Shown in pieces: positions 8,941-52,239 of a DNA stretch of 64,000 nt. A program made the position numbers and the translations under genes. Every line of letters starts with the position of its first letter. Positions within the stretch are counted from its first letter, which is position 1. Under the pieces are notes generated by a model. It had not been told where the DNA came from and searched no databases. It saw only the letters and a program-made list of their open reading frames with translations. The stretch is from an uncultured Bacteroidota bacterium (GTDB lineage Bacteria; CLD3; SB21): contig CAYPYN010000002.1 in NCBI GenBank assembly GCA_964415295.1, forward strand, positions 324,595 through 388,594, in the 5' to 3' direction.

Positions 8941-8963
8941 TGATTGCATTCTATGACTTGGAT

Positions 8964-9161
8964 CCACTTTCTTTTTAAAAAAGAAAGTGGCAAAGAAAAC
9001 TTCGGCTGTGATAAAAACGCCTAAACCCTCGTTCGCAGATCGAGGTTGCGAAAAACGATTCTCTATCTTTACATAACATTAAATCAGAACGTTTAGGGAA
9101 GCCGTTTTTCGCATGAATTTTTTCTGCGAACTCGGGTTTCTTCGGCATTCTTATCAAGGCC
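8964..9161. repeat. MITE-like element, copy B2 (inverted orientation, tail-to-tail with B1)
   Basis: It is the reverse complement of copy D. The hairpin CCACTTTCTTTTTAAAAAAGAAAGTGG is followed by CTTCGGCTGTGATAAAAACGCCTAAACCCTCGTTCGCAGA, and the element ends ...TCTGCGAACTCGGGTTTCTTCGGCATTCTTATCAAGGCC. Confidence 0.7.
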
Positions 9162-9241
9162 GCGAATACCGAAAACGAATTCCGTGAATTATTCAACGAT
9201 TATGTCATTTTGCAACAGCCTCAATGGCGAAGGCAGTTCCA

Positions 9242-34090: not shown

Positions 34091-34921
34091 ATGAAAGCGA
34101 TCATTTTAGCGGCAGGACAAGGAAAAAGGTTACTCCCTCTGACCCAGGACACCCCTAAAACGTTATTGAATATTTCCGGCACCACGATTTTGGAATACCA
34201 GTTGGTCACTTTGGCCAGTTGCAATGTCAAAGAAGTGGTCTTAGTTGGCGGCTTCCGTGTGGACAAACTGAAAGACTATGCGGAACGCTATATTGCCCTG
34301 CACGGATTGGACCTCAAGTTAAAGGTCATCAACAACAAAGATTACGCGATCACGAACAATCTGTATTCTCTGTGGCTCGCTAAGGACGAAATGAATTCGG
34401 ATTTTCTCGTTATCAATGGCGACAACGTTTTCGATCGCCGCGCGATCGTGAAAATGCTGCAGCAGAAAGACATTACAGCCGCCGTGGCCATACACAAGAA
34501 CCCCAGCTACGACGATGAAGATATGAAAGTTCGTATTGTTGGTTCCAATGTGGTTGAAATCAGCAAAGGTATTGACAATCAGCTGGCCAGCGGCGAATCG
34601 ATCGGACTCCGGTTATTCCGCGGCAAAGGCGTAGCCGCTTTCAAGTATGCGATGGATCTGGCTATGATAGAAGACGTCAAACGCAACGCCTTTTTCGTTC
34701 GCGCGATCCAGCACATGATCGACATGGGTCACAACGTCGGTTACGTCGAAGTGACGGAATACAAATACGGTGAACTCGACTTTTTCGAAGACCTGAAGAA
34801 TCTCGAAATCGAAATGGCCGGTATGATGAAACAAACGATCATGATGCATACCAATCCGGCGAGCCTTTATGCGATCAGCTTACAGCCTTACCGCGCTTCC
34901 GGCATGAAAAAAGCGAGCTAA
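34091..34921 (+). CDS. Nucleotidyltransferase (sugar-/alcohol-phosphate cytidylyltransferase-like, IPCT/LicC-like)
   Basis: 276 aa with the N-terminal motif MKAIILAAGQGKRLLPL (GxGxRL NTP-binding loop) and LVINGDNVFD. A GGAGAAG Shine-Dalgarno site lies upstream. Confidence 0.8.
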   Translation: MKAIILAAGQGKRLLPLTQDTPKTLLNISGTTILEYQLVTLASCNVKEVVLVGGFRVDKLKDYAERYIALHGLDLKLKVINNKDYAITNNLYSLWLAKDEMNSDFLVINGDNVFDRRAIVKMLQQKDITAAVAIHKNPSYDDEDMKVRIVGSNVVEISKGIDNQLASGESIGLRLFRGKGVAAFKYAMDLAMIEDVKRNAFFVRAIQHMIDMGHNVGYVEVTEYKYGELDFFEDLKNLEIEMAGMMKQTIMMHTNPASLYAISLQPYRASGMKKAS

Positions 34922-34962
34922 TAGCTTGTAAATATTGATATCATTTGCAATTATATTAAATT

Positions 34963-34994
34963 CTTGATAGTTTAACTATCAAGAATTTTTTTTT
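34963..34994 (+). terminator. Hairpin plus T-run (terminator or attenuator) between the cytidylyltransferase gene and the downstream operon
   Basis: Stem CTTGATAG-tttaa-CTATCAAG followed by AATTTTTTTTTT. Confidence 0.55.
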
Positions 34995-35003
34995 GGCGTC
35001 AAT

Positions 35004-36170
35004 ATGAAAATAGCCTATATCACAACCATCAAGATTCCCAGCCCGCAGGCGATATCAGAACAGGTGCTGAATAATCTTTCCGCATTGAGTTCTCACTCCG
35101 ACCTTACAATCACGCTGATTGCGCCAAAAAGAAAAGACGAGGAGCCTTCATCGGATACCATACGCCAATATTACGGGCTGAAGACTCCGGTGAAAATACA
35201 ATTCATGATGTACGCACGTTGGATGGGGCCAAAGCTCCGACGGTTTCTGCACCCCTTTTTGGCACCTCTATATTGTTCACTAAAAGGATTTGATGTATTC
35301 TATACCCGACATCCGACCATTCTGTTTTTTTGTCTTCTGCTTCACAAAAAAACGGTTTTCGATACTTACCGAATGGATCTGAGTTACGATGGAAGATATC
35401 TATTATGGAGAAAGTTCTGTCTGAATCGACGGAAGCTCATCGGTATATTCAGCCATTCGGAATTGGCCCGTCAGTCCTATATCAAAGCGGGCTTTGATCC
35501 TGATAAGATAATCACCGTTTACAACGGCTGTAACGATCGCTTCGAGGAGAGTTGTACCCAAAGAGCCAAGGTTCGTACCGATCTGAACATACCGCACGAC
35601 CAGATCGTAGTATGTTATGCCGGGCGCATCGAAAGCAAGAAAAAAAGGACCGATCTTCTTCTTCATATCGCCCATGAATTTCCCGATATCGTTTTTTTGA
35701 TAGTTGGAGGGGCTACTCAACCGTCTGAAGACGCCGTTTTTGACGACTCCATCAAAGCGCTCGGTCTTAACAACGTAATCCGGACCGGAATGGTCAAACC
35801 GTGCGAAGTCATGAATTATTTATGTGCTTCGGATATACTCATCATACCGCCTTCGGAAGACCCGCTGCACAAATGCGGCAAAACGGTACTGCCTCTCAAA
35901 ACTTTTCAATACTTGTCGGCCCGAAAAGCGATCCTGGCACCGAGACTCCCGGATATCGGTGAGGTATTAAATCACATGCAAAACGCGGTTCTGGTCACCC
36001 CCGGAGACCTAAGCGAGGCCAACCAGCAGTTGCAGGTGCTCATTGTGAACCACGACCTTCGCACAAAATTATCCAACCAGTGCGCTGAAGATATAAAGAA
36101 GTACACATGGGAATATCGGGCCAATCAAATTGCCGGTTTTCTGCATCAACATACCTCCGAAGGACGTTAA
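35004..36170 (+). CDS. Glycosyltransferase family 4 (GT-B fold)
   Basis: 388 aa with a GT4 C-terminal domain. The EX7E-like region includes SEDPLHKCGKTVLPLKTFQYLSARKAIL. Confidence 0.75.
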   Translation: MKIAYITTIKIPSPQAISEQVLNNLSALSSHSDLTITLIAPKRKDEEPSSDTIRQYYGLKTPVKIQFMMYARWMGPKLRRFLHPFLAPLYCSLKGFDVFYTRHPTILFFCLLLHKKTVFDTYRMDLSYDGRYLLWRKFCLNRRKLIGIFSHSELARQSYIKAGFDPDKIITVYNGCNDRFEESCTQRAKVRTDLNIPHDQIVVCYAGRIESKKKRTDLLLHIAHEFPDIVFLIVGGATQPSEDAVFDDSIKALGLNNVIRTGMVKPCEVMNYLCASDILIIPPSEDPLHKCGKTVLPLKTFQYLSARKAILAPRLPDIGEVLNHMQNAVLVTPGDLSEANQQLQVLIVNHDLRTKLSNQCAEDIKKYTWEYRANQIAGFLHQHTSEGR

Positions 36171-37009
36171 TGATGAAGTTCAGTATCCCCCGAAAGATGC
36201 TATGGACTATGGCCATGGTTTTTGGTCTGTCCGCCGTGATCGGTTTTCTTCTCCTCGAAAACAGTATGCGGCCGGTTCTGATCCCTCTGATAGTTGGCAT
36301 AGCAACACTGCTGTTTTTTAGTGCTTATGCATATATTGAGTTATCCAGCCGCTTAAGCTCCCATCATGACCTTGTTTACAGACAAACTGAAGCTTTATTC
36401 GGGATTCATTCCGTACTGCATCCAAGACTTCCTTTACCCTCGATGAGAGGCTGGACCATTCTTCCGGACGCCGCCGCCATTATTATTTCCAATATTCTTT
36501 CCCGAAAGCCTAACTTCATTCTCGAGTGCGGGTCCGGCGTCTCCACTATTCTGTGCGGATATTCTCTGGAGCGACTCAATAGTAAAGGCAAGATTCTGTC
36601 CATCGATCATGAAGCGTATTATGGTTCGTTAACCGCGAAGACCATGGAGAAACACGGTTTTTCATCGGATATGTTCAAAATTGTCCACGCACCGCTTATT
36701 ACTCACAAGAATGATTCCAAGCCCTTCATTTGGTATGACACGTCGTTCTTGTCCTTATTGACAAATCCCGTGGATCTTCTTATCGTGGATGGACCTCCGC
36801 ACAAGACGCAGTATAAAGCCCGTTATCCCGCCATGGCATTCCTTTTCGAAAAGCTGTCGGACAATGCCGTCATCATCCTGGACGATGGCAGCCGTCAGGA
36901 TGAAAAAGCCATCGTCGAGCAATGGCTGTCAGAATATCCTTCTTTAAAATTAGAATTTCATGACACTGAAAAAGGTGTTGCTGTGTTAACCAAAACCTCT
37001 GGCGCATGA
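36171..37009 (+). CDS. Membrane-anchored class I SAM-dependent methyltransferase
   Basis: The start ATG abuts the upstream stop. Two N-terminal TM helices are followed by motif I ILECGSGVSTIL and motif LLIVDGPPH. Confidence 0.65.
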
Positions 37010-37012
37010 CCC

Positions 37013-37600
37013 ATGGAAACAACCATTAAGAAAATCGTATCGGAATCCATTTCAGCAAAGAACAAGCTTCTTGAAAACAAGGAACTGATTCGAACCATCG
37101 GCGTGGTGGTCAATCAAATAACAGACGCTTACCGAAATAACCGAAAAGTACTTTTCTGCGGCAATGGCGGCAGCGCTGCGGATGCTCAACACATCGCCGC
37201 CGAATTATCCGGAAGGTTTTATCTCAACCGGAAACCGCTTTATGCCGAAGCACTGCATACCAATTCGTCTCATGTAACGGCCGTGGCCAATGACTTCGGA
37301 TACCACGAAGTATTTTCAAGACTGATAGAAGCCATGGCCAATAAAAACGACATTTTGGTCGCCATTTCAACTTCGGGAAATTCTCCCAATATTTTAAAAG
37401 CCATCGAGGCGGGCCGGAAAGCCGGCATGATTACAGTCGGCCTGACCGGAGAAAATGGCGGCAAAATGAGGAACTTGTGCGATCATCTACTCAACGTACC
37501 GTCCAACGATACACCGCGTATCCAGGAGTGTCATATCCTGATTGGACACATTATTTGTGAACTTGTCGAAAAGGCGCTTTTTGAACCGGATCGACCTTGA
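37013..37600 (+). CDS. gmhA: SIS-domain D-sedoheptulose-7-phosphate isomerase
   Basis: 195 aa. FCGNGGSAADAQHIAAEL and ISTSGNSPNILKA are hallmark GmhA motifs. Confidence 0.85.
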   Translation: METTIKKIVSESISAKNKLLENKELIRTIGVVVNQITDAYRNNRKVLFCGNGGSAADAQHIAAELSGRFYLNRKPLYAEALHTNSSHVTAVANDFGYHEVFSRLIEAMANKNDILVAISTSGNSPNILKAIEAGRKAGMITVGLTGENGGKMRNLCDHLLNVPSNDTPRIQECHILIGHIICELVEKALFEPDRP

Positions 37601-38847
37601 TTGGAGTTTTTATGAAAGTCATCATTGATGCCCGTTCGCGCATGTCATTTGAGAAAGTCTACAGCATCCCGTTGTTTGAACGCATACTTAGACAACTCAA
37701 TGAACTCAAAGCCGACGTGGAAGCTATCATACTTCTTCCGCCGGACTGCAATCCTGATCATGCACTCACAGGAGGTTTTTCAAAAAGATATAAGATCAGG
37801 AAGAAGTTCATTACCACAGTTGATCCATTGCAAAAAGTGATCTCGGCCGAATCAGCCGGCGACGGTGACATGATCCTTCTGGAAGGGGACGGAATATATG
37901 ACGAAAGGATCATTTCGGCACTTATTTCCAGTCCTAAATCTATCCTGATTTGCGATGGTTCAAGTCCTTTGCCTTTGGCGGCCAGACTATCTCATGACCA
38001 TATTGGGATCCTACTGTCGTCCCAAAGAGGTGTCATGGAGTCCATCAATAATCTGGTGGAAAGCGGTTCGGTTCATCGATTTGAGATTCGTTCGATGAAC
38101 AATTATGTGCGATTTCTCCGCCGCAATGTCATACCGTTAATCACGAGAATTGTATCGAAAGATCAGATTCCTGAGATTGAAAATACGATGTACGCCAATA
38201 CATTCAAAGGAACGTTGGAGCTGGTGGCCGTTTACGGATACCGAATTCCTGTAAGAGAACTCACCAAATTATTCGCCCGAACACCAATCACTCCAAATCA
38301 TGTCACAGCGGCCGCATTGATTTGCTCTTTTGGCGCCATACCCTTCTTGGCTTTAGGTTGGCTCTGGACGGGTATTTTGATGGCCGCCGGTTTCATTATC
38401 TTTGATTCGCTTGACGGAAAATTGGCCCGGATGACCATCCGACTTAGCAAGGCCGCCGATCGCTTTGATCATTTGACGAGCACACCGACGCGATCGGCCT
38501 GGTATCTAGCTATGGGCTGGCATCTATCGAACGGAAATCTCCTAGACGGAACGGGGCTTTTTGCACTCGTCTACGCCGCCATGCCTTATGTGGATAAGCT
38601 GACCGGAGTTGCTTTTAATGCAAGATTCGGCCGGTCTCCGTTGGATTACACTCCGCTGGATGCGAAGGTCCATCTTTTTACAGTACGAAGAAATGATATC
38701 TTTTTGATGATTCTCGGGCTGAGTTTCGGATTTATTGAAACGGCCTATCGCATCGCGGCCATCTGGGCCTTGTTGACATGGCTTTGGCATCTGTATCGGT
38801 TCATCTGGTTCAACCTCTTCCCTCTCAAGAAGGAAGCCCAGTCATGA
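37597..38847 (+). CDS. Fusion protein: degenerate cytidylyltransferase-like N-domain + CDP-alcohol phosphotransferase-like membrane domain (paralog 1, non-canonical motif)
   Basis: 416 aa. The N-domain has KVIIDARSRMSFEKV in place of the GxGxRL loop but keeps ILLEGDGIYDERII (compare LVINGDNVFD in the 34091 protein). The C-domain has DGKLARMTIRLSKAADRFDHLTS, a CDP-alcohol phosphotransferase motif with G replaced by A and the last D replaced by S. It overlaps the gmhA stop by 4 bp. Confidence 0.7.
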   Translation: MIGVFMKVIIDARSRMSFEKVYSIPLFERILRQLNELKADVEAIILLPPDCNPDHALTGGFSKRYKIRKKFITTVDPLQKVISAESAGDGDMILLEGDGIYDERIISALISSPKSILICDGSSPLPLAARLSHDHIGILLSSQRGVMESINNLVESGSVHRFEIRSMNNYVRFLRRNVIPLITRIVSKDQIPEIENTMYANTFKGTLELVAVYGYRIPVRELTKLFARTPITPNHVTAAALICSFGAIPFLALGWLWTGILMAAGFIIFDSLDGKLARMTIRLSKAADRFDHLTSTPTRSAWYLAMGWHLSNGNLLDGTGLFALVYAAMPYVDKLTGVAFNARFGRSPLDYTPLDAKVHLFTVRRNDIFLMILGLSFGFIETAYRIAAIWALLTWLWHLYRFIWFNLFPLKKEAQS

Positions 38848-40019
38848 AAGTAATGATCCTGGCCATGAAATTCCTTCCTGCAAGCGGAGGAAGCGCCTCG
38901 TATGCATACAATATGGCGATCGGTCTGCATAGACTTGGACATGATATTACACTGATGGCGCCGACTTACTCGCACAGAACCATGGAAGATCATGTGTTTC
39001 CTTTCAAAGTCAGGCGATTATTTTGGTCGGGTCCCCATTTCGGAATGTTCAGGCTCTTGTTTGCGGCACTCCATATTATGGCTGTTTACATCCGGATCAA
39101 ACCGGACGTTGTTTGGACCACAAGCTTTGCAGGTTGCCGTGTTCTCGGGCTTCTGACCTTCTTAAGTGCCCGCTTTGTCGGAACGATACACGGCGGGGGT
39201 ATTCACCGGCGCTATCCCTCAAAAAAAATTTCCAACAAATTCGGTGATTACCTCGGAATGAGGTTCATGAAACGGGCGGATGCTATCGTTACCATCAGCG
39301 AAGAATCCAAAAAGATAATAAAGACCAAATTGCCTTTCGAGTTCATACATCGGAAGCTCCGTCTTATTTACAACAGTATAGACTTTGATAAGACGAAATT
39401 CCGATCCAGAGAAGACGCTCTGCAACTTCTGTCTGGTCTGAAAGACAAAAAGGTAATCCTCACGGTGGCGAGACTGGTGGCCGCAAAGGGTCAAGACGTT
39501 GTCATTCGCGCTATGTCTTTACTGGCCGATCGTCATCCGGATGCCGTCTATGTCATCGTAGGTGAAGGAGTGGAGAGACCGGCTCTGGAGGCTCTTGTCA
39601 AAGAGCTACGTTTGGAGGACCGTGTCCTATTCGCGGGATATGTCACCGACGAACAGCTTGAAATGTATTACGCCGTATGCGATCTGTTTGTGATGGCCGG
39701 GCGATGGACCCCTAATTTTGTGGAGGGTTTCGGCCTCGTATATCTCGAAGCAGGCATTCGAGGCAAAGTGGTCATTGGAACAAGAGTCGGAGGAATTCCA
39801 GAAGCCATTGTCGAAGGGCAGACGGGTTTTGTAATCGAGCCGGAAAACCCCGAATTGCTTTCGCAAAAGATCGCCGAAGTACTCTCCGACGAGAAACTCC
39901 GGTCAGAAATGGGAATTTTCGCCGCCCAATACATCGACCGTCACTACAGTAACGATGTCATGGCCGGCCACAACAACGATCTTCTCAAAGCACTGAAGGG
40001 ATCGCAACAGAAAGTATGA
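38845..40019 (+). CDS. Glycosyltransferase family 4
   Basis: The start MKVMILAMKF overlaps the upstream stop. It has a GT4 signature and an EX7E-like motif (VEGFGLVYLEAGIRGKVVIGTRVGGIPE). Confidence 0.8.
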
Positions 40020-41332
40020 ATAGTCTCGTAAAACAATCCTTACGTATTCTGTTTGGAAAATCGAGCATTTCCGGCATCGGTGTGTTGTTCACCATATATT
40101 TTGCCTACGAACTGCCAAAGAATTTATTCGCACTGATCGCCCTTTACAGTACGGCCGCCAGTTTTACTCAGGTCATGATCGACCTTGGCCTGTCGGCAAA
40201 AATGGTCCGCGAAGCGCCGTCCCTTCTGAAAGACCAATCGACCCTTAAGGACGCCGTAGATCGCGTAATCATGCCCAGCGTGGTTCTTCGCTGGATGGCG
40301 GCCGGTATCGTTTGTTTGATCATGTTCGGTTTTCTCCAATGGATGCAGGTACCTTTGTCCGACGAATTCCCGGATCTCAATATTCAGTTCATGATCCTGA
40401 TCGCTCCCGTGAGCATGATGTTTGAGAATGGCAATTCCACGCTCTCTTCCATTTTTCAGGTCAATCGCCGATTTGGTACGGATGCGATGCTGGCTTCTCT
40501 GGCGACCTTGCTTGAAATGGTTTTTGCCTTTATACTCTATCTTAATTTTGGCATGAGTCAGTATTTTACAGGCGTTCTGGCGGCACAAGCTTCCATTTTT
40601 CTTGTCAGGCTGTATCTTTGCCGGGAAACGATCCGACTCTTCAATTCGGCGGGATTGCCTTGGAAAAAGTACAGGGGTATTGTAAGAGAATATTGGCCCT
40701 ATTACTTAAGGCGCTTTTTCCGTTTCGGGCTTCTGCAGGGAGAACAGCTGTTGGTAGCGATACTCCTTCCGCTTGCACAGCTGGCCGATTTTAATCTGGC
40801 AAAAAAATTGTCAAAGTATATGAAATTCTATATTGAGGCCTTTACGAACCCGCTCATCATGAAGCTCTCCAAGAATCGAGACATCGAACTTAGGCGCAGG
40901 CACGCACGTCAATTCCTGCTTTTTACGGTACCCCCGCCGATCATACTTTGCCTGTTGAGCCCGTGGATCATGCAGATCGCCGGAGGGGAAAAATATGCCG
41001 GGAGTTGGTTCATCCTCGCCATACTTTATGCTTCCTATGTATTCTATGCTTTTTCCAATCTCCAGATATCCGCAATAACTATATTCGGAAAAGGTACTGA
41101 TGTCCTGATGAGAGATGCGATAGGCAGTGTGGTCGGTTTGTGTGCCACGTTTGTTTTGATTCTGCTGTTCGGGCAATACGGATTGGCATGGGGCCAGCTT
41201 CTCGCTTATTTCACACTTTTCATAACCGGATACCAGTTGTCAAAGAAGTACATTGACTCTGATACGTCTGTTGATAAAGAGAAAAATAAAAACAAAACTC
41301 CGGAACCATCGGCACTGACGATTCCGGACTGA
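40016..41332 (+). CDS. Wzx-like oligosaccharide/lipid flippase (MOP superfamily)
   Basis: 438 aa with about 12 predicted TM helices. It overlaps the upstream stop by 4 bp. Confidence 0.7.
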   Translation: MNSLVKQSLRILFGKSSISGIGVLFTIYFAYELPKNLFALIALYSTAASFTQVMIDLGLSAKMVREAPSLLKDQSTLKDAVDRVIMPSVVLRWMAAGIVCLIMFGFLQWMQVPLSDEFPDLNIQFMILIAPVSMMFENGNSTLSSIFQVNRRFGTDAMLASLATLLEMVFAFILYLNFGMSQYFTGVLAAQASIFLVRLYLCRETIRLFNSAGLPWKKYRGIVREYWPYYLRRFFRFGLLQGEQLLVAILLPLAQLADFNLAKKLSKYMKFYIEAFTNPLIMKLSKNRDIELRRRHARQFLLFTVPPPIILCLLSPWIMQIAGGEKYAGSWFILAILYASYVFYAFSNLQISAITIFGKGTDVLMRDAIGSVVGLCATFVLILLFGQYGLAWGQLLAYFTLFITGYQLSKKYIDSDTSVDKEKNKNKTPEPSALTIPD

Positions 41333-41362
41333 TTCTGGCAAAACCCAATTTGCGGAGTAATT

Positions 41363-42010
41363 ATGAAGTTGCTAAACCTCGCCAATACCATCACCATGGT
41401 TCGTATCATCATCCTGTACATCACTGTTTACCTGATATACAATGGGGAAATAGTATTCCTGTTTATGGCAATCGGGCTGTCCATAGTCATAATCGGCTTA
41501 GATTGGCTGGATGGTTTTGTGGCCCGCCGTCGTAATGAGGTGACGCAATTCGGCGGTGTTTTGGATATCACCGGCGACCGTATTGTCGAAAATGTGTTCT
41601 GGATCGTCTTTGCCGACCTCGACATCATTCCGATGTGGATACCCATTATCGTTATGTCCCGCGGTTTCATGACTGATGCGATCCGCAGCCAGGCTTTGAC
41701 CGAAGGTAAAACCGCCTTTGGAGAGAATACCATGATGACCAGTGATATCGGGAAATTTCTTGTATCCGGCCGGTTCATGCGCGGACTATACGGCATTATC
41801 AAAGGCGTGACATTCCCATACCTGATCCTGGTACTGATCGCGCAGGAGCGTCATTTGAGGGATGCCAATCTTCAGGACTATCTGTGGGTCTCTACTTACA
41901 CGAAGAACGGCGGCGTCGCTTTGGCCATTACTACAACGGTTGTGAGCCTATTAAGAGGAATCCCTGTTCTGACCGAGGGACGTAAACTCTTTGTTAAGGA
42001 TGAAAAGTGA
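41363..42010 (+). CDS. CDP-alcohol phosphatidyltransferase (PgsA/PIP-synthase-like), canonical motif
   Basis: 215 aa. DGFVARRRNEVTQFGGVLDITGD fits D-G-x2-A-R-x8-G-x3-D-x3-D exactly. Multiple TM helices. Confidence 0.85.
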   Translation: MKLLNLANTITMVRIIILYITVYLIYNGEIVFLFMAIGLSIVIIGLDWLDGFVARRRNEVTQFGGVLDITGDRIVENVFWIVFADLDIIPMWIPIIVMSRGFMTDAIRSQALTEGKTAFGENTMMTSDIGKFLVSGRFMRGLYGIIKGVTFPYLILVLIAQERHLRDANLQDYLWVSTYTKNGGVALAITTTVVSLLRGIPVLTEGRKLFVKDEK

Positions 42011-42648
42011 AACTGGCTATTTTCGATATCGACGGAACCATTACTAATAAATCATCGGAACGATTTTTCATCAAGTATCTGTTGGAACGGAAGATCATCG
42101 GCTACGGCCATTTGGTGAAGACATTTTTTCTATTCGTAATGAAGCACCCTTTGCAGGCACGGACGGGTTTTAAACAGAATAAGATGTATCTGAGAGATCT
42201 AAGTGATAAAGCCCTGCGACTGGCTGCGGCCGAGTGTTTCAAAAGGAGCATCAAGCCCAATATTAAACAAACCATATTGGATGAAATAAATGAACGGAAG
42301 TCCCGAGGATACAAGATACTCCTACTAAGTGGGTCGCTTCCCTGTCTTGTGGAACCGATGCTAGATCATACCGGCGCCGATCATATGATCTGTTCCGATG
42401 TAGAAATTTCCAACGGTCTTTTCACTGGACATATGACAGATCTGCATCCATACGGACCAAGAAAAAGGATACTCGCAGAAAGATTTTGTCAGAGAAACGG
42501 CTACCGCATGGACCAATCGTGCGCCTATGCCAACGAATGGGCCGACCGGTTTCTTTTGGAATCAGTCGGAGAAGCAGTTGCTGTCGATCCGGATGAGAAG
42601 CTCAGGAAATTGGCTGACTCCAAGAAGTGGAAAATGATTAAAAGTTAA
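42007..42648 (+). CDS. HAD-superfamily hydrolase, subfamily IB (phosphoserine-phosphatase-like)
   Basis: 213 aa with motif I LAIFDIDGTIT, then S/T, K and DD motifs. It overlaps the upstream stop by 4 bp. Confidence 0.75.
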   Translation: MKLAIFDIDGTITNKSSERFFIKYLLERKIIGYGHLVKTFFLFVMKHPLQARTGFKQNKMYLRDLSDKALRLAAAECFKRSIKPNIKQTILDEINERKSRGYKILLLSGSLPCLVEPMLDHTGADHMICSDVEISNGLFTGHMTDLHPYGPRKRILAERFCQRNGYRMDQSCAYANEWADRFLLESVGEAVAVDPDEKLRKLADSKKWKMIKS

Positions 42649-42649
42649 T

Positions 42650-44092
42650 ATGGCTAAAACATTTAAACTCAAGCAGGCCGCGTGGTTTAAGGATGAAGAG
42701 AGGGAATTTACAGTTCCCGATTCCTTCACTGTTGACTTGATCACTCCGAAGGATGCCCCCTCTTTGACACCCGACGAGATACTCGGCTCAATTCAAAAAC
42801 CTTTCGGTCCATCATTAAGAGAAATGGCCATTGGAAAAAAGAAGGTTGTCGTTGTAACCGACGATCTCGGAAGACCCACACCTGCTTACCTGTTGATTCC
42901 AATTTTAATCGAAGAGTTGGAGACGGCCGGTATACTGAAAGAAAATATTTCCTTCGTTATCGCGACCGGTTCCCACCGTCAGTTGTCTTGCAGTGAGATT
43001 GAAAAAAAAATCGGCAAGACCATAGCCGATTCCTATCCCGTTCATTGTCACGATGCCTTCAATTCCCCCATGGTTCATCTTGGCCGTTTGGATAATGGAT
43101 TCCCCTGTATAGCCAATAGACAAGTTGCCGAAGCCGATCTGATTCTTGGGATAGGGTGCGTGATCCCGCACGCTTGCCATGGTTTTGGAGGCGGCGCTAA
43201 GCTTTTCTGTCCCGGTATTGCCGGCATGGAAAGCATTGTTACCATGCACGGTTTTGTACCAAAACGCGGCCGCGTGATAACCGATCCTCCTCCTGGTGTG
43301 TGGGATATGCGTTCGGCATCCGAGGCCTTTGCCCGGCTATTGCCGCCGATCTTCCTGGTAAACGCCGTTGTCAATTCGCAAAGAGAAATTGCCGGATTAT
43401 TTGCCGGAGAGACCGATCCGGTTTTTCGGGCGGCTCAAGAACGGGCGTTGGAAATTTATAAAACGGAAATCGACCCTGAAAAGGCCGCCTCGTACGACGT
43501 CATCTTGGTCAACATGTATCCTCTGGATTCAGATCCGGTCCAGTCGGGAAAAAGCCCGTGGATCCGTCAGTACTTCAAGCATGCTTTACCTATTCAGATC
43601 AACAGTTCTGCGGACGGTATCGACTACCACGGCTGGAAATTATTGAGAAAGAGCCGCTGGTCAACTTTCTTAATACTATTAACCGGAGAAGCCTTGAGCC
43701 TTAAATTCATGCCCGTTTTCCTAAGACGGCCGGCTTCGTGGAAAATCATTAAAACCCTGAGGTCCTATTGCCTTAAACGAATGTTGGATCACCCGGGTGT
43801 CGATTATGACACATTCATCAAAAACCAACATACGCTGACTCAACGTACGGAAGATTATACAGATGATTCTAAGATCCCAAGTCTATTTCGCAAACCCTGG
43901 ATATTCTCTGAGAATTATCCTCCGTTACAATTCAAGAAGAAATATCCATTCGGGTCATTGCTGAGAAATTGGGATCACGTAATTCAGTCCATACAGAGCC
44001 ATTTTCCCAAGCCAAAAATTGCCGTCGTAACATGCGCCGCGATGCAGATTCCCGTTTATAGCAACTCACAAAACGAACCAAATGCTTTATGA
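42650..44092 (+). CDS. LarA-like (lactate racemase N-terminal domain / DUF2088) protein
   Basis: 480 aa. The N-terminal region VVVVTDDLGRPTP...IATGSHR resembles the nickel-pincer racemase/epimerase family. The C-terminal half is divergent. Confidence 0.6.
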   Translation: MAKTFKLKQAAWFKDEEREFTVPDSFTVDLITPKDAPSLTPDEILGSIQKPFGPSLREMAIGKKKVVVVTDDLGRPTPAYLLIPILIEELETAGILKENISFVIATGSHRQLSCSEIEKKIGKTIADSYPVHCHDAFNSPMVHLGRLDNGFPCIANRQVAEADLILGIGCVIPHACHGFGGGAKLFCPGIAGMESIVTMHGFVPKRGRVITDPPPGVWDMRSASEAFARLLPPIFLVNAVVNSQREIAGLFAGETDPVFRAAQERALEIYKTEIDPEKAASYDVILVNMYPLDSDPVQSGKSPWIRQYFKHALPIQINSSADGIDYHGWKLLRKSRWSTFLILLTGEALSLKFMPVFLRRPASWKIIKTLRSYCLKRMLDHPGVDYDTFIKNQHTLTQRTEDYTDDSKIPSLFRKPWIFSENYPPLQFKKKYPFGSLLRNWDHVIQSIQSHFPKPKIAVVTCAAMQIPVYSNSQNEPNAL

Positions 44093-45315
44093 CCATCCTT
44101 ATTGATGCCAGATCGAAATACGCTTCGGAAAGACTATTCAACTTATCCTTAACCGAGAGAATTCTGAGGCAATTGCATGTATTGGAAGCCAGAAACGTAT
44201 GCGTAATAATTTCTGAAGGCATGCGTCCTGACAATTTTGTTAAGACCGGATTTGAAAAACGTTTTCCTCTAGCGTTGCGCTGGATCTGCACAAACGAACC
44301 ACTGGCTAGAATTGCCGGCGAAACCGCAGATAAGAGCGACTACCTCATTCTCGAAGGAGACGGCATTTACGACGATCGTATTTTAAAAGAACTGTTGGAA
44401 TCGAAATCTTCGTTATGGGTAAGAAATGAGAAGAACCCGGAAGCGCCTCTAGCCCTCGCTCTCCGCGGATCCGACGTAAGGCATTTCACGGAATCCGGCA
44501 AATCACCAAAGGAATTCTTGGCAACCTTCTCCATTCCAACACTTGGCACGCACTCCATGCAGGCCTATATCCGCTTTTTGCGGAAACATATTGAACCCGT
44601 TTTGATTCGCTTGACGGATCCAAAGGATATTCGATCGATCGAAAACGATCTTTACGAAAAAACCTTTAAAGGCGGAATGGAAATCGTGGCGATCTACGGT
44701 TACCGGATCCCCGTTCGCGAACTCACTCGTTTTTTTGCCAAGACACCGATTACGCCCAATATGGTGACCGGCGTAGCTACCCTTTGTAAACTGGGAGCTA
44801 TACCGTTCTTTTTCTACGGTCATCTCTTGACGGGTCTGCTGTTGGCTTTTTCTTTTATTATCCTTGATTCACTGGATGGAAAACTGGCCCGCATGACCTT
44901 CCGATTCAGCGATACGGCCGATAAAGTTGATCATATGACAAGCATGCCGGCGCGGGTTGGGTGGAACTTCGGCATGTGCTGGCATTTTTCCGGCGGAGAC
45001 CTTACCAGCATACCCGGGATCGCCGGATTGATCGTAACGGTCCTGCCTTTTCTGGACGACATCAACTGGACCATTATCAAGCACAAATTCCATCGTTCTC
45101 TTTTCGATCTTACCCCTTTTGATGCAACCGTGCACCTGTTCAATGTCAAACGCAATGATACAGCCGTTATGATCATCGGCACCTTGGCCGGATTTCCTTT
45201 ACAGGCTTTTTATTTCATAACTTTTTGGACCATGGTCGTTTGGATCTGGCACACGGTACGAACCGCCTATGTGATCCTGGTTCTTAGTAAACAACATCCG
45301 GAAATGCTGCAATAA
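44089..45315 (+). CDS. Fusion protein: degenerate cytidylyltransferase-like N-domain + CDP-alcohol phosphotransferase-like domain (paralog 2, non-canonical motif)
   Basis: 408 aa, a paralog of the 37597 gene. The N-domain has MTILIDARSKY and ILEGDGIYDDRIL. The C-domain has DGKLARMTFRFSDTADKVDHMTS, with the same G-to-A and D-to-S substitutions. Confidence 0.7.
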   Translation: MTILIDARSKYASERLFNLSLTERILRQLHVLEARNVCVIISEGMRPDNFVKTGFEKRFPLALRWICTNEPLARIAGETADKSDYLILEGDGIYDDRILKELLESKSSLWVRNEKNPEAPLALALRGSDVRHFTESGKSPKEFLATFSIPTLGTHSMQAYIRFLRKHIEPVLIRLTDPKDIRSIENDLYEKTFKGGMEIVAIYGYRIPVRELTRFFAKTPITPNMVTGVATLCKLGAIPFFFYGHLLTGLLLAFSFIILDSLDGKLARMTFRFSDTADKVDHMTSMPARVGWNFGMCWHFSGGDLTSIPGIAGLIVTVLPFLDDINWTIIKHKFHRSLFDLTPFDATVHLFNVKRNDTAVMIIGTLAGFPLQAFYFITFWTMVVWIWHTVRTAYVILVLSKQHPEMLQ

Positions 45316-45336
45316 AACCGATAAGGCGATTAATCC

Positions 45337-46830
45337 ATGACCCCTTCTCCAGCTATAAGAAATGCGATACTGATCACGGTCAACTCACAACACCAGTCCA
45401 TAGTTACCGATGTGCTCTACGGCGGCGAAACTCTGCTTAACCGTTCGCTCGTGGCTATGTCCAAATCCGGGATTACGAAGGCAACGATCGTCTCGGCACC
45501 GGGTTCATCCCAAAAGATTATGGAAATGATCAGTAAAGTCGATCATCGTCTTTCTCTCAAGTATGATATCACGGAACTGAGTCAAAATGAAATTTTATCG
45601 GTAAAGATCAAATCGATTACCGCCGGAAACAAAGAAAGCTTTTTGATTTTCGAGGCGGACAAGTTCATGCATCCAACCTTCCTTCAGCAGGTCGTGGCGT
45701 CGGAGCTTCCGGATAAAGCCGTACTCCCGGCTTATAAAGATGTGCTCACCAAAGACGGACAGGTTGTCTTTGCTCCCTCTTTTAAAGAAAAATTCAAGAT
45801 CATTTTTGCAAATGCCGGGAGTTTCAACAAAATCAAAGTTGAGAACGCCGACTGGTCTTTATTCAACTCCAATCCCATGACACTTTCTGCGGCCAATGTC
45901 CGTACTGTTTTGACACAGAACGGGAGCGGTATTATATCCACTGACGTGATGGTTTGTTCAGGAAATATATTAAACCGCTTGACTGATTTTCGATCCCTGG
46001 ATGAAGCAATAAATCAGGCGATCGGATCGGGCCTTGCATCAGTGGCATTTGTCAAAGATGCCTGGTGGCTGCGTGTCACGCCGTCCATATCGAAGTCGCA
46101 CATCAAAGAGATGATATGGAAAATCGCTTTTAAAGAGATCAGCGGGGAATTTTCCAAGGCGGTTAACTCCAAGATGTCAAAACCGTTATCATTTTATTTT
46201 GCACGTAAAGGCGTAACTCCCAATACCCTCAGCAATGCGCAACTGGTCCTGTTTCTTTTGGCCTCCTGTTTCCTGCTATTCAATACACACTGGGCGATGA
46301 TCGTATTTGCGGTAATCTGGCAGTTTTCCGCCGGCGTTTTGGACCGCTGCGACGGCGAGGTAGCCCGCATTCGCAATCACGAATCGGAATCCGGCGGTCG
46401 CTTTGACATGATCATCGACGACATGCGTTTTGGATTACCGTTCATCATATTGGGTGCGGTACTTTATCTGGAAAGTCAAGACTCATTGTATCTCTTCTCC
46501 TTTGGAGCGGCATTTGTCTGGTTCTTAGCCTTGACCCTGTACGAACAGAATTTCATGCGCAAAGCCGGGTATGTCAGCCGCCAGGTGATGTATGTCGATT
46601 ATATGAAAATGATCGGTGAGGATAGCCAGACAACGTCGGCATTGAAGAAATACGCACCTATCGCCAAGGGCGATATCAGAACGTTTTATGTTTTTCTTTT
46701 ATCTCTTTTTGGTCTAAAAGAGATTGTCTTTTGGGTACTTTTGGCTTATCTTACCTTAGTTCCTATCTCTTCCTTCGTGGGTGTCCTGCGCTTTAAGAAG
46801 GAATATTCCAAGAACCCGGGCCGGGTGTAG
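45337..46830 (+). CDS. Fusion protein: cytidylyltransferase-like N-domain + canonical CDP-alcohol phosphotransferase (DIPPS-like) domain (paralog 3)
   Basis: 497 aa. The C-domain motif DGEVARIRNHESESGGRFDMIIDD fits D-G-x2-A-R-x8-G-x3-D-x3-D exactly. The N-domain (~250 aa) lacks a glycine-rich loop. Confidence 0.75.
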   Translation: MTPSPAIRNAILITVNSQHQSIVTDVLYGGETLLNRSLVAMSKSGITKATIVSAPGSSQKIMEMISKVDHRLSLKYDITELSQNEILSVKIKSITAGNKESFLIFEADKFMHPTFLQQVVASELPDKAVLPAYKDVLTKDGQVVFAPSFKEKFKIIFANAGSFNKIKVENADWSLFNSNPMTLSAANVRTVLTQNGSGIISTDVMVCSGNILNRLTDFRSLDEAINQAIGSGLASVAFVKDAWWLRVTPSISKSHIKEMIWKIAFKEISGEFSKAVNSKMSKPLSFYFARKGVTPNTLSNAQLVLFLLASCFLLFNTHWAMIVFAVIWQFSAGVLDRCDGEVARIRNHESESGGRFDMIIDDMRFGLPFIILGAVLYLESQDSLYLFSFGAAFVWFLALTLYEQNFMRKAGYVSRQVMYVDYMKMIGEDSQTTSALKKYAPIAKGDIRTFYVFLLSLFGLKEIVFWVLLAYLTLVPISSFVGVLRFKKEYSKNPGRV

Positions 46831-47038: not shown

Positions 47039-50000
47039 ATGCACAATCCCGCATTGCGACCCGTTTATGTCGGCATTGACGTTGGTTCTATCAGCGTCAA
47101 AATGGCCGCGCTGACCGCACCTGAGGACGAACTTGGTTCTTCTGATCACTTCGAACTTTTCAAGAACCAGCGCTTCACAATGGCTCTGTCCCGCTATCGC
47201 CGTTCGAACGGCGAAAGCCTGGCCGTGACCGTGCAGATGCTGCGTCAGTTAACAGAAATAATTCCTCTGAGCCGCATCGCCGGGATTCAGGTCATTGGAT
47301 CCGGCGGACGACAGATCAGCGATCATTTACAGGCGCAATTCGAGAATGAATTTCGTGCCGTAGCCAAAGGCGTGGGTACCTTATATCCGGATGTTCAGAC
47401 CGTATTCGAAATGGGCGGCGACAATTCCAAGTTCCTTCATATTCAAATCAACAAGCAGAGCGGCATGATCGGGATCGAAGATTATGAAAAGAACGGCGAT
47501 TGCGCGGCGGGCACGGGGTCTTTTATGGATCAGCAGGCCAGCCGATTGAAATACAACATCGAAGAAGTAGGAGACATCGTACTGAAAGCCGGAAAAGCCA
47601 GTACCATTGCCGGCCGTTGCTCCGTTTTTGCAAAGAGCGACATGATCCACGCCCAGCAGAAAGGCGAACAGCCCCCTGAAATCCTCAAAGGTCTGTGCGA
47701 AGCGGTTGTCAGAAACTTTAAGAGTTCCATCGTTAAAGGACGTACGATCGCGCCCAAAGCCATTTTCATCGGCGGCGTCTCGGCCAATAAAGGTGTGGTT
47801 CAAGCCATGAAGAACTTATTTGAAATTCCGGACGAGGATTTCATCACGACGCCGTTTTATGCCTGGTGCGGAGCTATCGGCGCGGCGCTCTTGGCTAAGG
47901 AAGCGAAGGTTCTAAAAGATCACCGGTATCTCGAAAGCTTAATTTCAGAAGGAGAACTCAAATCAAATAATAGTTTTGCGTCGGGACAACCGCTTCACAC
48001 ACGCGATGTCATCTTTTTGCGTGACCGGGTGAAGCCGTATTCCTTTGAAGGAAAATCCATTCCCGTCAAAGCCTATTTGGGAATTGATATCGGTTCGGTC
48101 AGCACCAACCTGGTCGTGATCGACGACGATAATAATATCATAAAAGAGATCTACGTCTATACGCAGGCGAGGCCTATCGAGATCGTAAACCAGGGTCTTA
48201 AGGATATCCACCGGGAACTGGGCGGAAAAATATCCGTTGAAGGCGTTGGCACGACAGGTTCCGGGCGGGAATTGATCGGAGAGCTGATCGGCGCCGATGC
48301 GATTAAGGACGAGATCACGGCGCATAAGACGGGAGCCGTCTACATCAGCGACAAACTCATCCAAGCCAAAGTCGATACGATATTCGAAATCGGCGGGCAG
48401 GATTCCAAATTCATCAGCCTGCAGGATAATATCGTGGTTGATTTTGCGATGAACGAGGCCTGTGCGGCAGGAACCGGTTCCTTCCTGGAAGAACAGGCGG
48501 AAAAACTCGGCATCAGCATCAAAGGTGAGTTCTCAAAGCTGGCCTTGAGTTCCGCCAGTCCGATCAAGCTCGGCGAACGATGCACGGTCTTCATGGAAAA
48601 AGACATCAACGCCTTCATGCAGACGGGCGCGGCCAAAGAGGACATCGTAGCGGGACTTGCCTATTCCATTGTTCACAATTATCTCAACCGGGTCGTGCGT
48701 TCAAGGAAGATCGGCGACACAATCTATTTCCAGGGCGGCACCGCTTACAATGATTCCGTGGCCGCGGCCTTCTCGATGGTTCTGGGTAAGAAGATCATCG
48801 TGCCTCCGCACAACGGCGTTGTCGGCGCTATCGGCGCGGCTATTCTAGCCAAAGAAAAAGTTCTTGCCGGTCAGGATAAGACGAAATTCCGAGGCTACAG
48901 TCTTGATGCGATCAATTATACCGTTCGCCATTTTACCTGCCGCGCCTGCTCCAATTTCTGCGACATGCAGGAGGTCAAAGTGGATTCAGAAAAAACATTC
49001 TGGGGGGATAAATGCTCCGACAAATTCCGTAAGAAAGCCAAAGTGGATAAAAAGCCGGTCATACCCAACCTGGCCGATCTCCGGGAAAACATCCTCATGG
49101 AAACATTTGAACCGGGCCGTAATCAAGGGAACAAATCGATCGGGCTCCCGAGGAGCATGCATTTTTTTGAGAAACTTCCATTTTGGAATGCCTATTTCAA
49201 TAGCGTGGGTTTTCAAGTGGTATTGTCGGAATCTACCAATAAAGAGATCATTAATGCCGGCGTCGAAGCGACCATCGCCGAACCGTGTTTCCCGATCAAG
49301 GTCGCTCACGGTCATTTTAAGAATCTAATAGACAAAGGCTGCGATTATATTTTCCAACCCAATGTCATCGACGGCGAGACGAAGTTCATGAACTACAACT
49401 CCCACCATTGCCCATGGACGCAGACTTTGCCGTTCGTTCTCAAAGGCTCCTCTCTCGGTGAAGGCCGCGAAGAAATGATCCTGTGTCCGACCCTTCATTT
49501 CCGCGAAGGTCAGAAAAAGATATCGGATGAACTTTTTGATTATCTGAAGAGGCCCCTGAATCTCAAACGGACATTGCACGATAAAGCCGTGCAAAGGGCT
49601 TATGATGCCCAGCACCGGTTCCAGCAAAAGCTCTATGAATTGGGCCGTGACGCGATCCGTGCTATCGACGACAGCGGCGAAATGGCCGTGATCCTGGTCG
49701 GCCGCGTGTATAACGTGAACGACCGCAGCATGAATCTCAATATCCCCAACAAATTGCGGGAGTATTACGGGATTAATGTCATCCCCATGGACATGCTCGA
49801 TATTCATTCCATCGATATCACCGATATCAACAACAACATGTACTGGAATTCCGGCCGAAAGATCCTTCAGATTGCGAAGTTCATAAAGGACAGACCGCAC
49901 CTGCATCTCATTTACATCACCAATTTCAAGTGCGGTCCGGATTCTTACATCAAACATTTCGTCGCCGAGGCATCAGGGAAACCTTTTCTAACCCTGCAAC

Positions 50001-51507: not shown

Positions 51508-52239
51508 ATGAAAATGTTTCCAAAGATACCTCTGGCATTGACCTTGGCCGCCGTTCTGGTCTTTGTTTTCCGCATGGACGAAGCCTCATCCGGCGTAGAT
51601 CGGGTCGTTGTTGAGGATTTCTCAACCTCCATCACAGGTCAATTCCCAAAGAACTGGGGCTGGTTGGATGGTACGTCGGTTAAGAAGATCAGTGAAGCGT
51701 CGCCCGGAGAAGTGCCTTACGTTGTCCTTGAAGAAAACGGAAATAAATACCTCCACGCCGATGATGCGGGGCAAGCCGTTACGATCGTAAGCGACAAAAA
51801 ATGGAACGTCAAGAAATATCCCTGTCTCAGTTGGCGCTGGAGAGTAAAGCAATTCCCGACCGGCGCGAATGAAAAAAGGGCCGGCAAAAAGGACAGCCCG
51901 GCCGCATTGTACATCACGTATTATGTCAATTTCCTGGGCATTCCCAAAAGTATAAAATACATCTGGAGCAATGAACTCGGACCCTGCGATATTTTTAAGA
52001 ATGAAGGTACTGGAAAAGCCATGCAGACGGTTGTGGAATCGGGTGCAATAAAGAAAGATGTCTGGGTCACCGAGACCATCAATATTTACGAGCACTATAA
52101 AAAAGTCTTTGGTGATTATCCTCCCGATGAGATCGCGGGCATTGCTATCCGTACTGACGCCGACCACACCAAGAGCCGGGCAACAGCCGATTACGATGAC
52201 ATTGTTGCGTTGGCGGATTGCGATGGGAAGTGTAAATAG
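51508..52239 (+). CDS. Secreted DUF3047-like protein
   Basis: 243 aa with an N-terminal signal/TM segment and a GGAG Shine-Dalgarno site. Conserved W/Y-rich segments include WRWRVKQFP and IKYIWSN. Confidence 0.55.
   Translation: MKMFPKIPLALTLAAVLVFVFRMDEASSGVDRVVVEDFSTSITGQFPKNWGWLDGTSVKKISEASPGEVPYVVLEENGNKYLHADDAGQAVTIVSDKKWNVKKYPCLSWRWRVKQFPTGANEKRAGKKDSPAALYITYYVNFLGIPKSIKYIWSNELGPCDIFKNEGTGKAMQTVVESGAIKKDVWVTETINIYEHYKKVFGDYPPDEIAGIAIRTDADHTKSRATADYDDIVALADCDGKCK

Follow-up and report, generated by a model that had tools for sequence, protein, structure and literature searches.

What is made by a bacterial gene block in which an alcohol-phosphate cytidylyltransferase stands together with four proteins of the CDP-alcohol phosphotransferase (CAPT) family, a LarA-like protein and a flippase? 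The block occupies positions 34091-46830 of a 64,000-nucleotide stretch (the window) of contig CAYPYN010000002.1, from an uncultured Bacteroidota bacterium (assembly GCA_964415295.1) labelled phylum CLD3, and consists of 12 co-directional, tightly packed open reading frames (ORFs) on the plus strand, numbered g1 to g12. It is suggested that this block is an operon building an exported, glycosylated, phosphodiester-linked and probably anionic lipid head group through a CDP-glycerate-type pathway, a reading given a probability of about one half. What is observed directly comprises the domains and their catalytic motifs, the fold, the conserved linkage and the homology to families from loci for ceramide phosphoglycerate (CPG) lipids; the steps of the pathway and the substrates are inferred. 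The original prediction for this DNA, a membrane phospho-alcohol glycolipid rather than a solute, is partly supported in that it was right in kind. Six genes carry the argument:

34091..34921, plus strand: g1, CpgD-like (LicC/IMPCT-clade) alcohol-phosphate cytidylyltransferase of 276 amino acids; Pfam NTP_transf_3 and NTP_transferase
37612..38847, plus strand: g5, CpgA-family fusion of a predicted nucleotidyltransferase-like N-terminal domain, without G-loop, to a six-helix CAPT domain whose signature lacks the second Gly (G2) and the fourth Asp (D4), DSLDGKLARMTIRLSKAADRFDHLTS
41363..42010, plus strand: g8, small PgsA/AIPS-like CAPT with the full catalytic signature, DWLDGFVARRRNEVTQFGGVLDITGD; PF01066, E 1.5e-17
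42650..44092, plus strand: g10, probable LarA-like nickel-pincer-type 2-hydroxyacid racemase/epimerase; Lar_N, E 1.3e-44
44089..45315, plus strand: g11, paralog of g5, its signature also without the fourth Asp, DSLDGKLARMTFRFSDTADKVDHMTS
45337..46830, plus strand: g12, AF2299/DIPPS-like CAPT with the full signature, DRCDGEVARIRNHESESGGRFDMIID, and a predicted nucleotidyltransferase-like N-terminal domain without G-loop; PF01066, E 1.7e-10

The cytidylyltransferase g1 and the Caulobacter pathway

Comparison with solved structures places g1 beside LicC (1JYK, E 1.7e-15), the IMPCT of Thermotoga maritima (4JD0, E 5.8e-12) and 2XME. The protein keeps an intact GxGxR...K loop and belongs to the LicC/IMPCT fold clade with its catalytic Arg, Lys and Asp, the corresponding R13, K23 and D111 being invariant in the family alignment (A3). 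In CpgD of Caulobacter crescentus the catalytic residues are R16, K26 and D112, and the top fold match is the same entry, 4JD0 (PMC12275187). The contacts of CpgD with glycerate are made by N90, N110, S170, M147 and K161. At compatible positions g1 has N90, N109, S170, M145 and K159; within A3, an alignment of the g1 family, N109 and K159 do not vary and M145 hardly does, and K159 is common to IMPCT. Over 245 amino acids g1 is 36% identical (E 1e-46) to the gene at the CpgD position of a Sulfitobacter sphingolipid locus (L069), and it scores 68.9 bits against the NCBIfam model for IPCT/DIPPS (NF041135, cutoff 580). A g1-like gene is present in 31 of 87 related loci and, in many phyla, lies directly upstream of a member of the g5/g11 family. 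From its sequence, g1 probably makes a CDP-activated head-group donor, for which CDP-glycerate is the product proposed.

The Caulobacter CPG/CPG2 pathway comprises CpgD (CCNA_01210/CC_1152), CpgA (CCNA_01217/CC_1159), CpgB, CpgC, CC_1153, CC_1158 and LptC2F2G2, the last of which are the proposed exporters (PMC9393093, PMC11324152, PMC12275187, PMC13228409). CpgD makes CDP-glycerate. CpgA, in which a PF01066 domain is combined with a cytoplasmic N-terminal domain, is genetically required for the second phosphoglycerate on ceramide phosphoglycerate, the support for its activity in Caulobacter being genetic only. The Sulfitobacter locus has the layout reported for Caulobacter (PMC11324152), with CerR-, Spt-, CpgC-, CpgB- and CpgA-like genes, Metallophos, LptF2/G2, a bCerS-like GNAT gene and a CC_1153-like gene. 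Its second CpgA-family member aligns with g5 and g11 over their full length at 26-28% identity (E 1e-37 to 1e-40; for g5, 26% and 1e-39), and the gene at its CpgA position aligns with their C-terminal halves at about 28% (E 1e-14 to 6e-23). By sequence, the core of the window is thus homologous to the CpgD/CpgA part of the CPG2 pathway (PMC9393093, PMC11324152, PMC12275187), where the original prediction had recognised no characterised pathway, and phosphoglycerate is for this reason a better candidate substrate than inositol phosphate.

The likeness lies in the pairing of a LicC/IMPCT-clade cytidylyltransferase with CAPT membrane proteins bearing a cytoplasmic N-terminal domain, in the membership of g1 and of g5 and g11 in the families of the CpgD- and CpgA-position genes of syntenic loci, and in the linkage to dedicated lipid export genes, the products being likely anionic lipids of the outer surface. 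However, the two systems differ in three respects: first, paralogs or homologs of Spt, CerR, bCerS, the CpgB kinase, CpgC, Metallophos and LptFG are missing from the window. Second, the fourth Asp is kept in CPG-type loci and lost in the window's family members. Third, the window, which comes from another phylum, adds an AF2299-like CAPT, a PgsA-like CAPT with a HAD phosphatase, a LarA-like racemase, family 4 glycosyltransferases (GT4s), GmhA, a methyltransferase and Wzx.

The phosphotransferase-type proteins

The class I CAPT signature (PF01066), D1xxD2G1xxAR...G2xxxD3xxxD4, has eight defining residues, and D4 is the putative catalytic base, a D-to-N change of which nearly abolishes the activity of a phosphatidylinositol phosphate (PIP) synthase (PMC4634129). 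All eight are present in g8 and in g12, two complete domains among the four, and the signature is invariant in the g12-family alignment. In g5 and g11 it reads DxxDGxxAR-x8-A-xxx-D-xxx-S, with Ala in place of G2 and Ser in place of D4, and the PF01066 scores of these two (21.7 and 18.1 bits) lie below the cutoff of 22, which is passed by g8 (64.8) and g12 (42). The D4 position is not conserved across the g5-family alignment (A1); in 90 locus-linked members of the g5/g11 family it is occupied by D (28), A (26), S (26), T (4), V (4) or H (2). The small enzyme g8 scores 67 bits against the pgsA model TIGR00560 (cutoff 109), and g12 matches AF2299 (4O6M, E 3.9e-11) and 4MND (E 1.6e-8).

The AlphaFold2 model of g5 (pLDDT 86) has as its top Foldseek match the IPCT-DIPPS 4MND (E 4e-12), with AF2299 at E 6.7e-11, and the six-helix CAPT folds 4MND, 4O6N, 5D92 and 6WMV are matched at E 4e-12 to 1e-8 with a TM-score of about 0.6; the N-terminal half alone matches MurU and RmlA. 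Pfam found no match in the N-terminal domains of g5, g11 or g12. When aligned with the g1 family by hhalign, the N-terminal domain of the g12 family reaches a probability of 96.3% (E 1.7e-9) and that of the g5 family 94.5%. Given the predicted fold and this profile comparison, the N-terminal domains are still considered nucleotidyltransferase-like. The GxGxR...K loop is conserved in neither A1 nor alignment A2, g5 and g11 starting IDARS... and g12 having ILITVNSQHQ..., and because the N-terminal domains are without the catalytic loop none of the three proteins is predicted to be a bifunctional IPCT/DIPPS.

These results divide what had been claimed for the fusion proteins. The IPCT/DIPPS-type architecture is upheld for all three, by Foldseek matches to 4MND and AF2299 and by profile comparison. 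The description of three paralogous two-domain proteins holds for g5 and g11, which are close paralogs (43% identity), but not for g12, which is only a distant relative of them (24% BLAST identity over 222 amino acids; hhalign probability 98.7% over the whole length). The count of four CAPT domains overstated the catalytic content, two of them (g5 and g11) lacking the catalytic-base Asp, and the fused cytidylyltransferase domains cannot be taken as competent with the catalytic loop gone in all three. The Archaeoglobus fulgidus proteins IPCT/DIPPS (4MND) and AF2299 (4O6M) are the best matches among solved structures, sharing the cytidylyltransferase-like domain, the six-helix CAPT fold and, with g12, the full signature, and differ from the window proteins in the N-terminal loop and, for g5 and g11, in G2 and D4. 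The NF041135 scores of g12 (59 bits) and g5 (22.9 bits) fail like that of g1, so that the fusion proteins reach 23-59 bits where 580 is required, and the context in the window is one of lipid and glycan, not of solute.

Given this architecture and the presence of a HAD phosphatase, it might be proposed that the block makes a soluble phosphodiester compatible solute resembling di-myo-inositol phosphate, glycerophosphoinositol or diglycerol phosphate, as IPCT/DIPPS does. This is scarcely credible: the fused N-terminal domains have no catalytic loop, the block holds a flippase, GT4s and a membrane methyltransferase, the surroundings of the family over 87 loci are those of lipid export, and the GC content is mesophile-like, with nothing heat-specific in the locus.

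It was also considered whether g5 and g11 are dead pseudo-enzymes. This was not adopted, given the conservation of the family, although the two may be inactive. The family numbers 387 cluster representatives at E<=1e-30 among 1.84 billion, and beyond the CAPT motif D328, D345, D350, W385 and R396 are among many invariant residues in A1. Simple decay is disfavoured because the family is conserved in this way and because a cytidylyltransferase lies directly upstream in many genomes.

Related loci, the LarA-like protein and the substrate

The g5/g11 family was confirmed in 277 stretches of species-representative genomes, in Latescibacterota, Gemmatimonadota, Binatia, Myxococcota, Alpha-, Beta- and Gammaproteobacteria, metagenome-assembled genomes (MAGs) of Bacteroidota, and others. 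The comparison of homologous neighbourhoods proposed with the original prediction was carried out by clustering the neighbour genes of the 87 related loci, and it separated two locus types. In type A (23 loci, from Proteobacteria, Binatia and Myxococcota) the fourth Asp is kept and the neighbours are a Spt-like aminotransferase, a CerR-like reductase, a bCerS-like GNAT, a DAGK_cat kinase, Metallophos, LptF/LptG paralogs, an MsbA-like transporter, a CofC-like nucleotidyltransferase and a g1-like nucleotidyltransferase, an arrangement that has been published for the Caulobacter region CC_1152-CC_1168. Type B comprises 49 loci, the window among them, which come from CLD3/Bacteroidota MAGs, Latescibacterota and Gemmatimonadota. 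In this type the fourth Asp has been lost, and none of the 49 loci contains the sphingolipid, cpgB or cpgC genes (Spt, CerR, bCerS, DAGK_cat, Tam41-like CpgC). Type B loci contain instead Wzx-like flippases (27 loci), g12-like full-signature CAPTs (20), and LarA-like proteins, GT4s, LPG_synthase_TM and DUF3047 (11 each), and those of Gemmatimonadota also have MlaC and OEP. The type B locus and the full gene set of the window are undescribed.

Across the 87 loci the neighbours are mostly lipid flippases or exporters (Wzx-like, MsbA-like, MprF-TM-like (LPG_synthase_TM), LptFG, MlaC and OEP), and the core conserved across phyla is a cytidylyltransferase, a CAPT and a flippase. This agrees with a membrane-bound pathway of the CDP-alcohol type, as had been predicted, and not with a soluble product. 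An earlier thought, that the MsbA-like, LptFG and CTP_transf_3 neighbours tied the proteobacterial loci to lipopolysaccharide (LPS) and Kdo, was dropped, these being sphingolipid CPG2 loci with Lpt paralogs (PMC11324152).

Two observations on individual relatives are recorded here. Loci of the CPG2 type carry a second full-signature CpgA-family member (L069 10001-11200, L084 9992-11194, L060 9923-11248 and others), found in Alphaproteobacteria, Binatia and Burkholderiales beside an LptG paralog or an MsbA-like gene; it is the nearest to g5 and g11, and it is absent from the six CPG2 genes named for Caulobacter in the literature cited. In a Latescibacterota locus (L025 11218-16316) the genes that come after the family member encode a GT4, a sulfotransferase, a GINT1_N protein and a flippase, with a LarA-like gene nearby, which suggests a sulfated glycolipid variant. 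The GINT1_N domain is known from the glycosylation of plant glycosylinositol phosphorylceramides.

The linkage of a LarA-like gene to the g5/g11 CAPT family, seen in 15 loci of several phyla, provides an argument on the substrate that is independent of g1: it points to a 2-hydroxyacid such as glycerate as the transferred unit. Aligned with the lactate and malate racemase structures 2YJG and 6D6Z, g10 keeps the equivalents of the catalytic His108 and His174, the cofactor tether Lys184, the nickel ligand His200 and the carboxylate-binding Arg75, Gln295 and Lys298, and these seven residues are conserved in 15 of 15 locus-linked homologs. From these residues g10 is a probable nickel-pincer 2-hydroxyacid racemase or epimerase, resembling the LarA superfamily (PMC7583248, PMC11770544) in its catalytic His pair, tether Lys, nickel His and carboxylate Arg, Gln and Lys. 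It differs from that superfamily in lying far below every curated subfamily cutoff (186 against 500) and in its divergent C-terminal part, which has one hydrophobic segment (residues 340-358) and no LarA_C match in Pfam. Glycerate-specific LarA homologs are known (PMC11770544). Since a LarA-type reaction needs a free 2-OH, the substrate of g10 would be glycerate, 3-phosphoglycerate or a 3-linked glycerate, and not 2-phosphoglycerate. A literature search for a link between CAPTs and lactate racemase returned no papers, the LarA literature searched does not mention CAPT linkage, and the LarA superfamily paper makes no mention of CDP, lipid or membrane.

The main alternative to glycerate is inositol. 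In a Kennedy-type pathway g1 would make CDP-inositol, a CAPT would move inositol phosphate to diacylglycerol or ceramide, and the HAD phosphatase and GT4s would process the product, as in the Bacteroides vulgatus/Prevotella type or in the manner of phosphatidylinositol mannosides. The trio of NTP transferase, CAPT and HAD is that of the alternative inositol-lipid cluster proposed for B. vulgatus and Prevotella, likewise organisms of the Fibrobacterota-Chlorobiota-Bacteroidota group, and that cluster also includes an LPG-synthase homolog (PMC9246714); an LPG_synthase_TM (MprF-TM-like) neighbour occurs in 12 of the related loci. Furthermore, the best NCBIfam match of g12 is IPCT/DIPPS, g5 and g11 match PIP or archaetidylinositol-phosphate synthases, g6 matches MshA-like GT4s, and the Latescibacterota locus has its GINT1_N protein. 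Nevertheless, these NCBIfam scores are far under their cutoffs (59 against 580; 39 against 170), and no myo-inositol-phosphate synthase (MIPS) family was found among the 38 window ORFs scanned or the annotated recurrent neighbour clusters, whereas MIPS is normally adjacent in Bacteroidetes and adjoins the B. vulgatus-type cluster. That cluster, which is functionally unconfirmed and was compared by its description, has no counterpart to the LarA-like racemase, the extra CAPTs, the GT4s or the flippase, and the CAPTs of the window are fusion proteins. A 2-hydroxyacid racemase would have no role with inositol, and g1 comes closer to the proteins at the CpgD position (E 1e-46) than to the solved IPCT structures (4e-7 to 6e-12). 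An inositol lipid is therefore held to be quite improbable.

The rest of the block, its flanks and a possible pathway

The remaining six genes of the block are the following:

35004..36170, plus strand: g2, divergent GT4 glycosyltransferase; Glycos_transf_1, E 2.5e-13, with weak NCBIfam matches
36170..37009, plus strand: g3, membrane-anchored class-I S-adenosylmethionine methyltransferase with two N-terminal transmembrane helices; Methyltransf_24
37013..37600, plus strand: g4, GmhA-like SIS sugar-phosphate isomerase; TIGR00441, 207.0 bits (cutoff 209.45)
38844..40019, plus strand: g6, GT4 glycosyltransferase; Glycos_transf_1, E 1.2e-42, with BshA-, MshA- and EpsE-like NCBIfam matches
40016..41332, plus strand: g7, Wzx-like flippase; Polysacc_synt
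42007..42648, plus strand: g9, HAD-IB phosphatase of the phosphoserine-phosphatase class, its start overlapping the g8 stop by 4 bp; TIGR01490, 107 bits (cutoff 98.3)

Pfam and NCBIfam bear out the domain calls made originally for g1, g2, g3, g4, g6, g7, g8, g9 and g10, with g4 just under its cutoff. Thirteen genes had been claimed; 12 ORFs are found, which is also the total of the list given with that claim. All 12 are real genes, given that the locus is syntenic, flanks included, at 49-67% protein identity in a contig whose name carries the phylum label CLD3 and in several MAGs labelled 'bacterium' or Bacteroidota. Relative to the MAG copies in L006 and L007, g1 is 93-97% and g8 86-93% identical, and g5 49-66%; the small catalytic enzymes g1 and g8 appear to be under far stronger constraint than the fusion proteins. 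With starts corrected for g3 (36170), g5 (37612, the start of database protein P0001) and g6 (38844), neighbouring genes at 10 of the 11 junctions either overlap or stand no more than 30 bp apart: -4 bp at g5/g6, g6/g7, g8/g9 and g10/g11, -1 bp at g2/g3, where the g3 start overlaps the g2 stop codon, +1 bp at g9/g10, +3 bp at g3/g4, +11 bp at g4/g5, +21 bp at g11/g12 and +30 bp at g7/g8. The packed block that had been described is upheld with these corrections. The exception among the 11 junctions is g1/g2 (+82 bp), within which lies one further feature:

34958..34988, plus strand: perfect, AT-rich 14-bp inverted repeat followed by T7, a terminator-like site

Judged from its sequence, this hairpin could be a terminator or attenuator of g1 transcription, or an operator. 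Counts of terminator-like and promoter sites across the region are within chance expectation, the g1/g2 hairpin alone being notable, and an Rfam scan of the window gave no match.

The Wzx-like flippase, the two GT4s, GmhA and the methyltransferase of the block are components usual in Wzx/Wzy-type O-antigen or capsule clusters, and it could be supposed that the block is a routine cluster of this kind with phospho-substituents. This is very improbable, in agreement with the original prediction: the scan of the 12 genes and their flanks turned up neither an initiating phosphoglycosyltransferase nor a Wzy polymerase or chain-length regulator, and no Wza/Wzc export or nucleotide-sugar synthesis gene lies within or beside the block. 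Known clusters of this kind do not contain four CAPT-family genes and a LarA homolog, and the core conserved across phyla consists of cytidylyltransferase, CAPT and flippase. Among the related loci, a GT4 of the g6 cluster is present in 19, a g7 homolog in 13, and g8 with g9 in six; in the relative L002 a GT4 takes the place of g3.

The same Wzx-type flippase and GT4s, standing without a classical initiating transferase, are compatible with a teichoic-acid-like or phospho-polyol pathway that uses another CDP donor (CDP-glycerol, CDP-alditol, or CDP-heptose from the GmhA product), perhaps on polyprenyl-phosphate, in which the Asp-less CAPTs would act on a phosphate acceptor needing no catalytic base. 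AF2299, to which g12 comes closest among solved proteins, binds CDP-glycerol (PMC4634129), GmhA is encoded within the block, an aldo-keto reductase is a neighbour in eight related loci, and loss of the catalytic base would be compatible with an anionic nucleophile. Such a pathway is nonetheless unlikely, given that a CAPT acting on a phosphate acceptor is without precedent, that g1 is not of the TagD/TarI type, that the LarA linkage points to a carboxylate substrate, and that GmhA, which occurs only in the six loci most closely related to that of the window, is hence accessory. Against PRK13938, g4 scores 203.5 (cutoff 320). The version of the locus in a Bacteroidota MAG (L087 3206-5227) has a transketolase gene immediately upstream of its g1-like gene; whether this transketolase has any connection with the window's GmhA-like gene is uncertain.

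Downstream of the 12-gene block lies a further gene that recurs in related loci:

51508..52239, plus strand: DUF3047, signal-anchored periplasmic beta-sandwich protein, outside the block

DUF3047 (homologs include P0165 and P0166; see also L021:930-1574 and L036:1507-2835) recurs beside these CAPT genes in 12 loci, among them L087, where it comes right after the cluster, and L037 of Gemmatimonas; in Gemmatimonadota and Latescibacterota loci it stands beside MlaC, OEP and an MprF-TM-like gene, and some homologs are fused to MlaC. Its AlphaFold2 model (pLDDT 90) matches generic beta-sandwich folds at TM-scores of at most 0.5 (carbohydrate-binding modules, glycoside hydrolase families 11 and 12, a C5-epimerase N-terminal domain), and the only paper found on this domain is uninformative on its function. 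A possible role is that of an accessory of the system in periplasmic lipid handling or transport. It is flanked by plus-strand ORFs at 50147-51481 (444 amino acids, no Pfam or NCBIfam match) and 52276-52839 (187 amino acids, no Pfam match). Between these and the operon, after a gap of 208 bp, a 1028-amino-acid protein (47039-50125) with two BcrAD_BadFG ATPase domains and DUF2229 resembles an acyl-CoA dehydratase activase, and a BcrAD_BadFG/DUF2229 gene also follows g12-like genes in L027 and L030. The usual partners of such activases are 2-hydroxyacyl-CoA dehydratases, and their presence beside a 2-hydroxyacid racemase is odd. At 2203-10678, on the minus strand, two proline-racemase-family genes, a DAO-type FAD oxidase, an ornithine cyclodeaminase/mu-crystallin protein, an M24 peptidase and an aldehyde dehydrogenase form a block resembling a hydroxyproline/proline catabolic cluster.

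In the CDP-glycerate-type pathway favoured here, the head group would be assembled on a membrane lipid at the cytoplasmic face and then flipped outward. With CTP, g1 would activate an alcohol or hydroxyacid phosphate, most likely phosphoglycerate to CDP-glycerate. By analogy with PgsA/Pgp or with PIP synthase and PIP phosphatase, g8 and the translationally coupled g9 would place a first phosphatidyl-linked head group on a glycerolipid. From the CDP donor, g12 and g5/g11 would then extend it by at least one phospho-unit, in the way that the second phosphoglycerate is attached by CpgA in Caulobacter. Given the loss of the catalytic-base Asp, g5 and g11 may be partners of g12 that do not themselves catalyse, or enzymes whose acceptor is altered. 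The C2 configuration of the hydroxyacid unit would be set by g10, acting on glycerate, 3-phosphoglycerate or a 3-linked glycerate. The GT4s g2 and g6 and the methyltransferase g3 would decorate the product, for which g4 may supply heptose, g7 would flip it, and DUF3047 may act downstream in the periplasm.

Several observations weigh against this pathway. The 36% identity of g1 to CpgD-like proteins leaves its specificity unfixed, in a clade that includes choline-phosphate and inositol-phosphate enzymes, and its orthology to CpgD rests on synteny in MAG loci; furthermore, the hairpin at 34958-34988 stands between g1 and the rest of the block. In both g5 and g11 the Asp is missing at the position where a D-to-N change all but eliminates the activity of a PIP synthase (PMC4634129), and the two may be inactive for this reason. 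A tblastn search of the 64-kb window with the Sulfitobacter L069 homologs found no Spt, CerR, CerS, CpgB, CpgC, Metallophos or LptFG, and the lack of Spt, CerR, CerS, CpgB and CpgC homologs means that the window leaves the lipid anchor unfixed. The Caulobacter pathway contains nothing that corresponds to GmhA, the GT4s or the methyltransferase. CpgD prefers 2-phosphoglycerate in vitro, which offers a LarA-type enzyme no free 2-OH, and larB, larC and larE were not seen among the window ORFs scanned (of a contig of about 590 kb).

A wider proposal can be made tentatively, as a doubtful possibility: that across CLD3, Bacteroidota, Latescibacterota and Gemmatimonadota the type B loci represent a second, widespread kind of lipid system based on CDP-glycerate. 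In such a system Asp-less CpgA-family proteins would serve as partners of AF2299-like CAPTs or use a new acceptor, LarA would set the stereochemistry of a (poly)phosphoglycerate, and the anchor would be a glycosylated glycerolipid instead of a sphingolipid. The product, an anionic outer-membrane lipid comparable to CPG2 or to the phosphates of LPS, would be exported by Wzx/MprF-like flippases, MlaC, DUF3047 and OEP.

Known only since 2022, the phosphoglycerate lipids (CPG2) allow Caulobacter to survive without lipid A. If the same CDP-glycerate chemistry operates here, it would reach beyond the sphingolipid-producing Proteobacteria into several poorly known phyla, with a different anchor. It would also give a LarA-family nickel-pincer enzyme its first biosynthetic, envelope-related role, and would tie DUF3047 to periplasmic lipid handling. 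The locus furthermore offers a natural case in which CAPT-family proteins stay under selection although their proposed catalytic base is gone, which bears on the unproven mechanism of CpgA.

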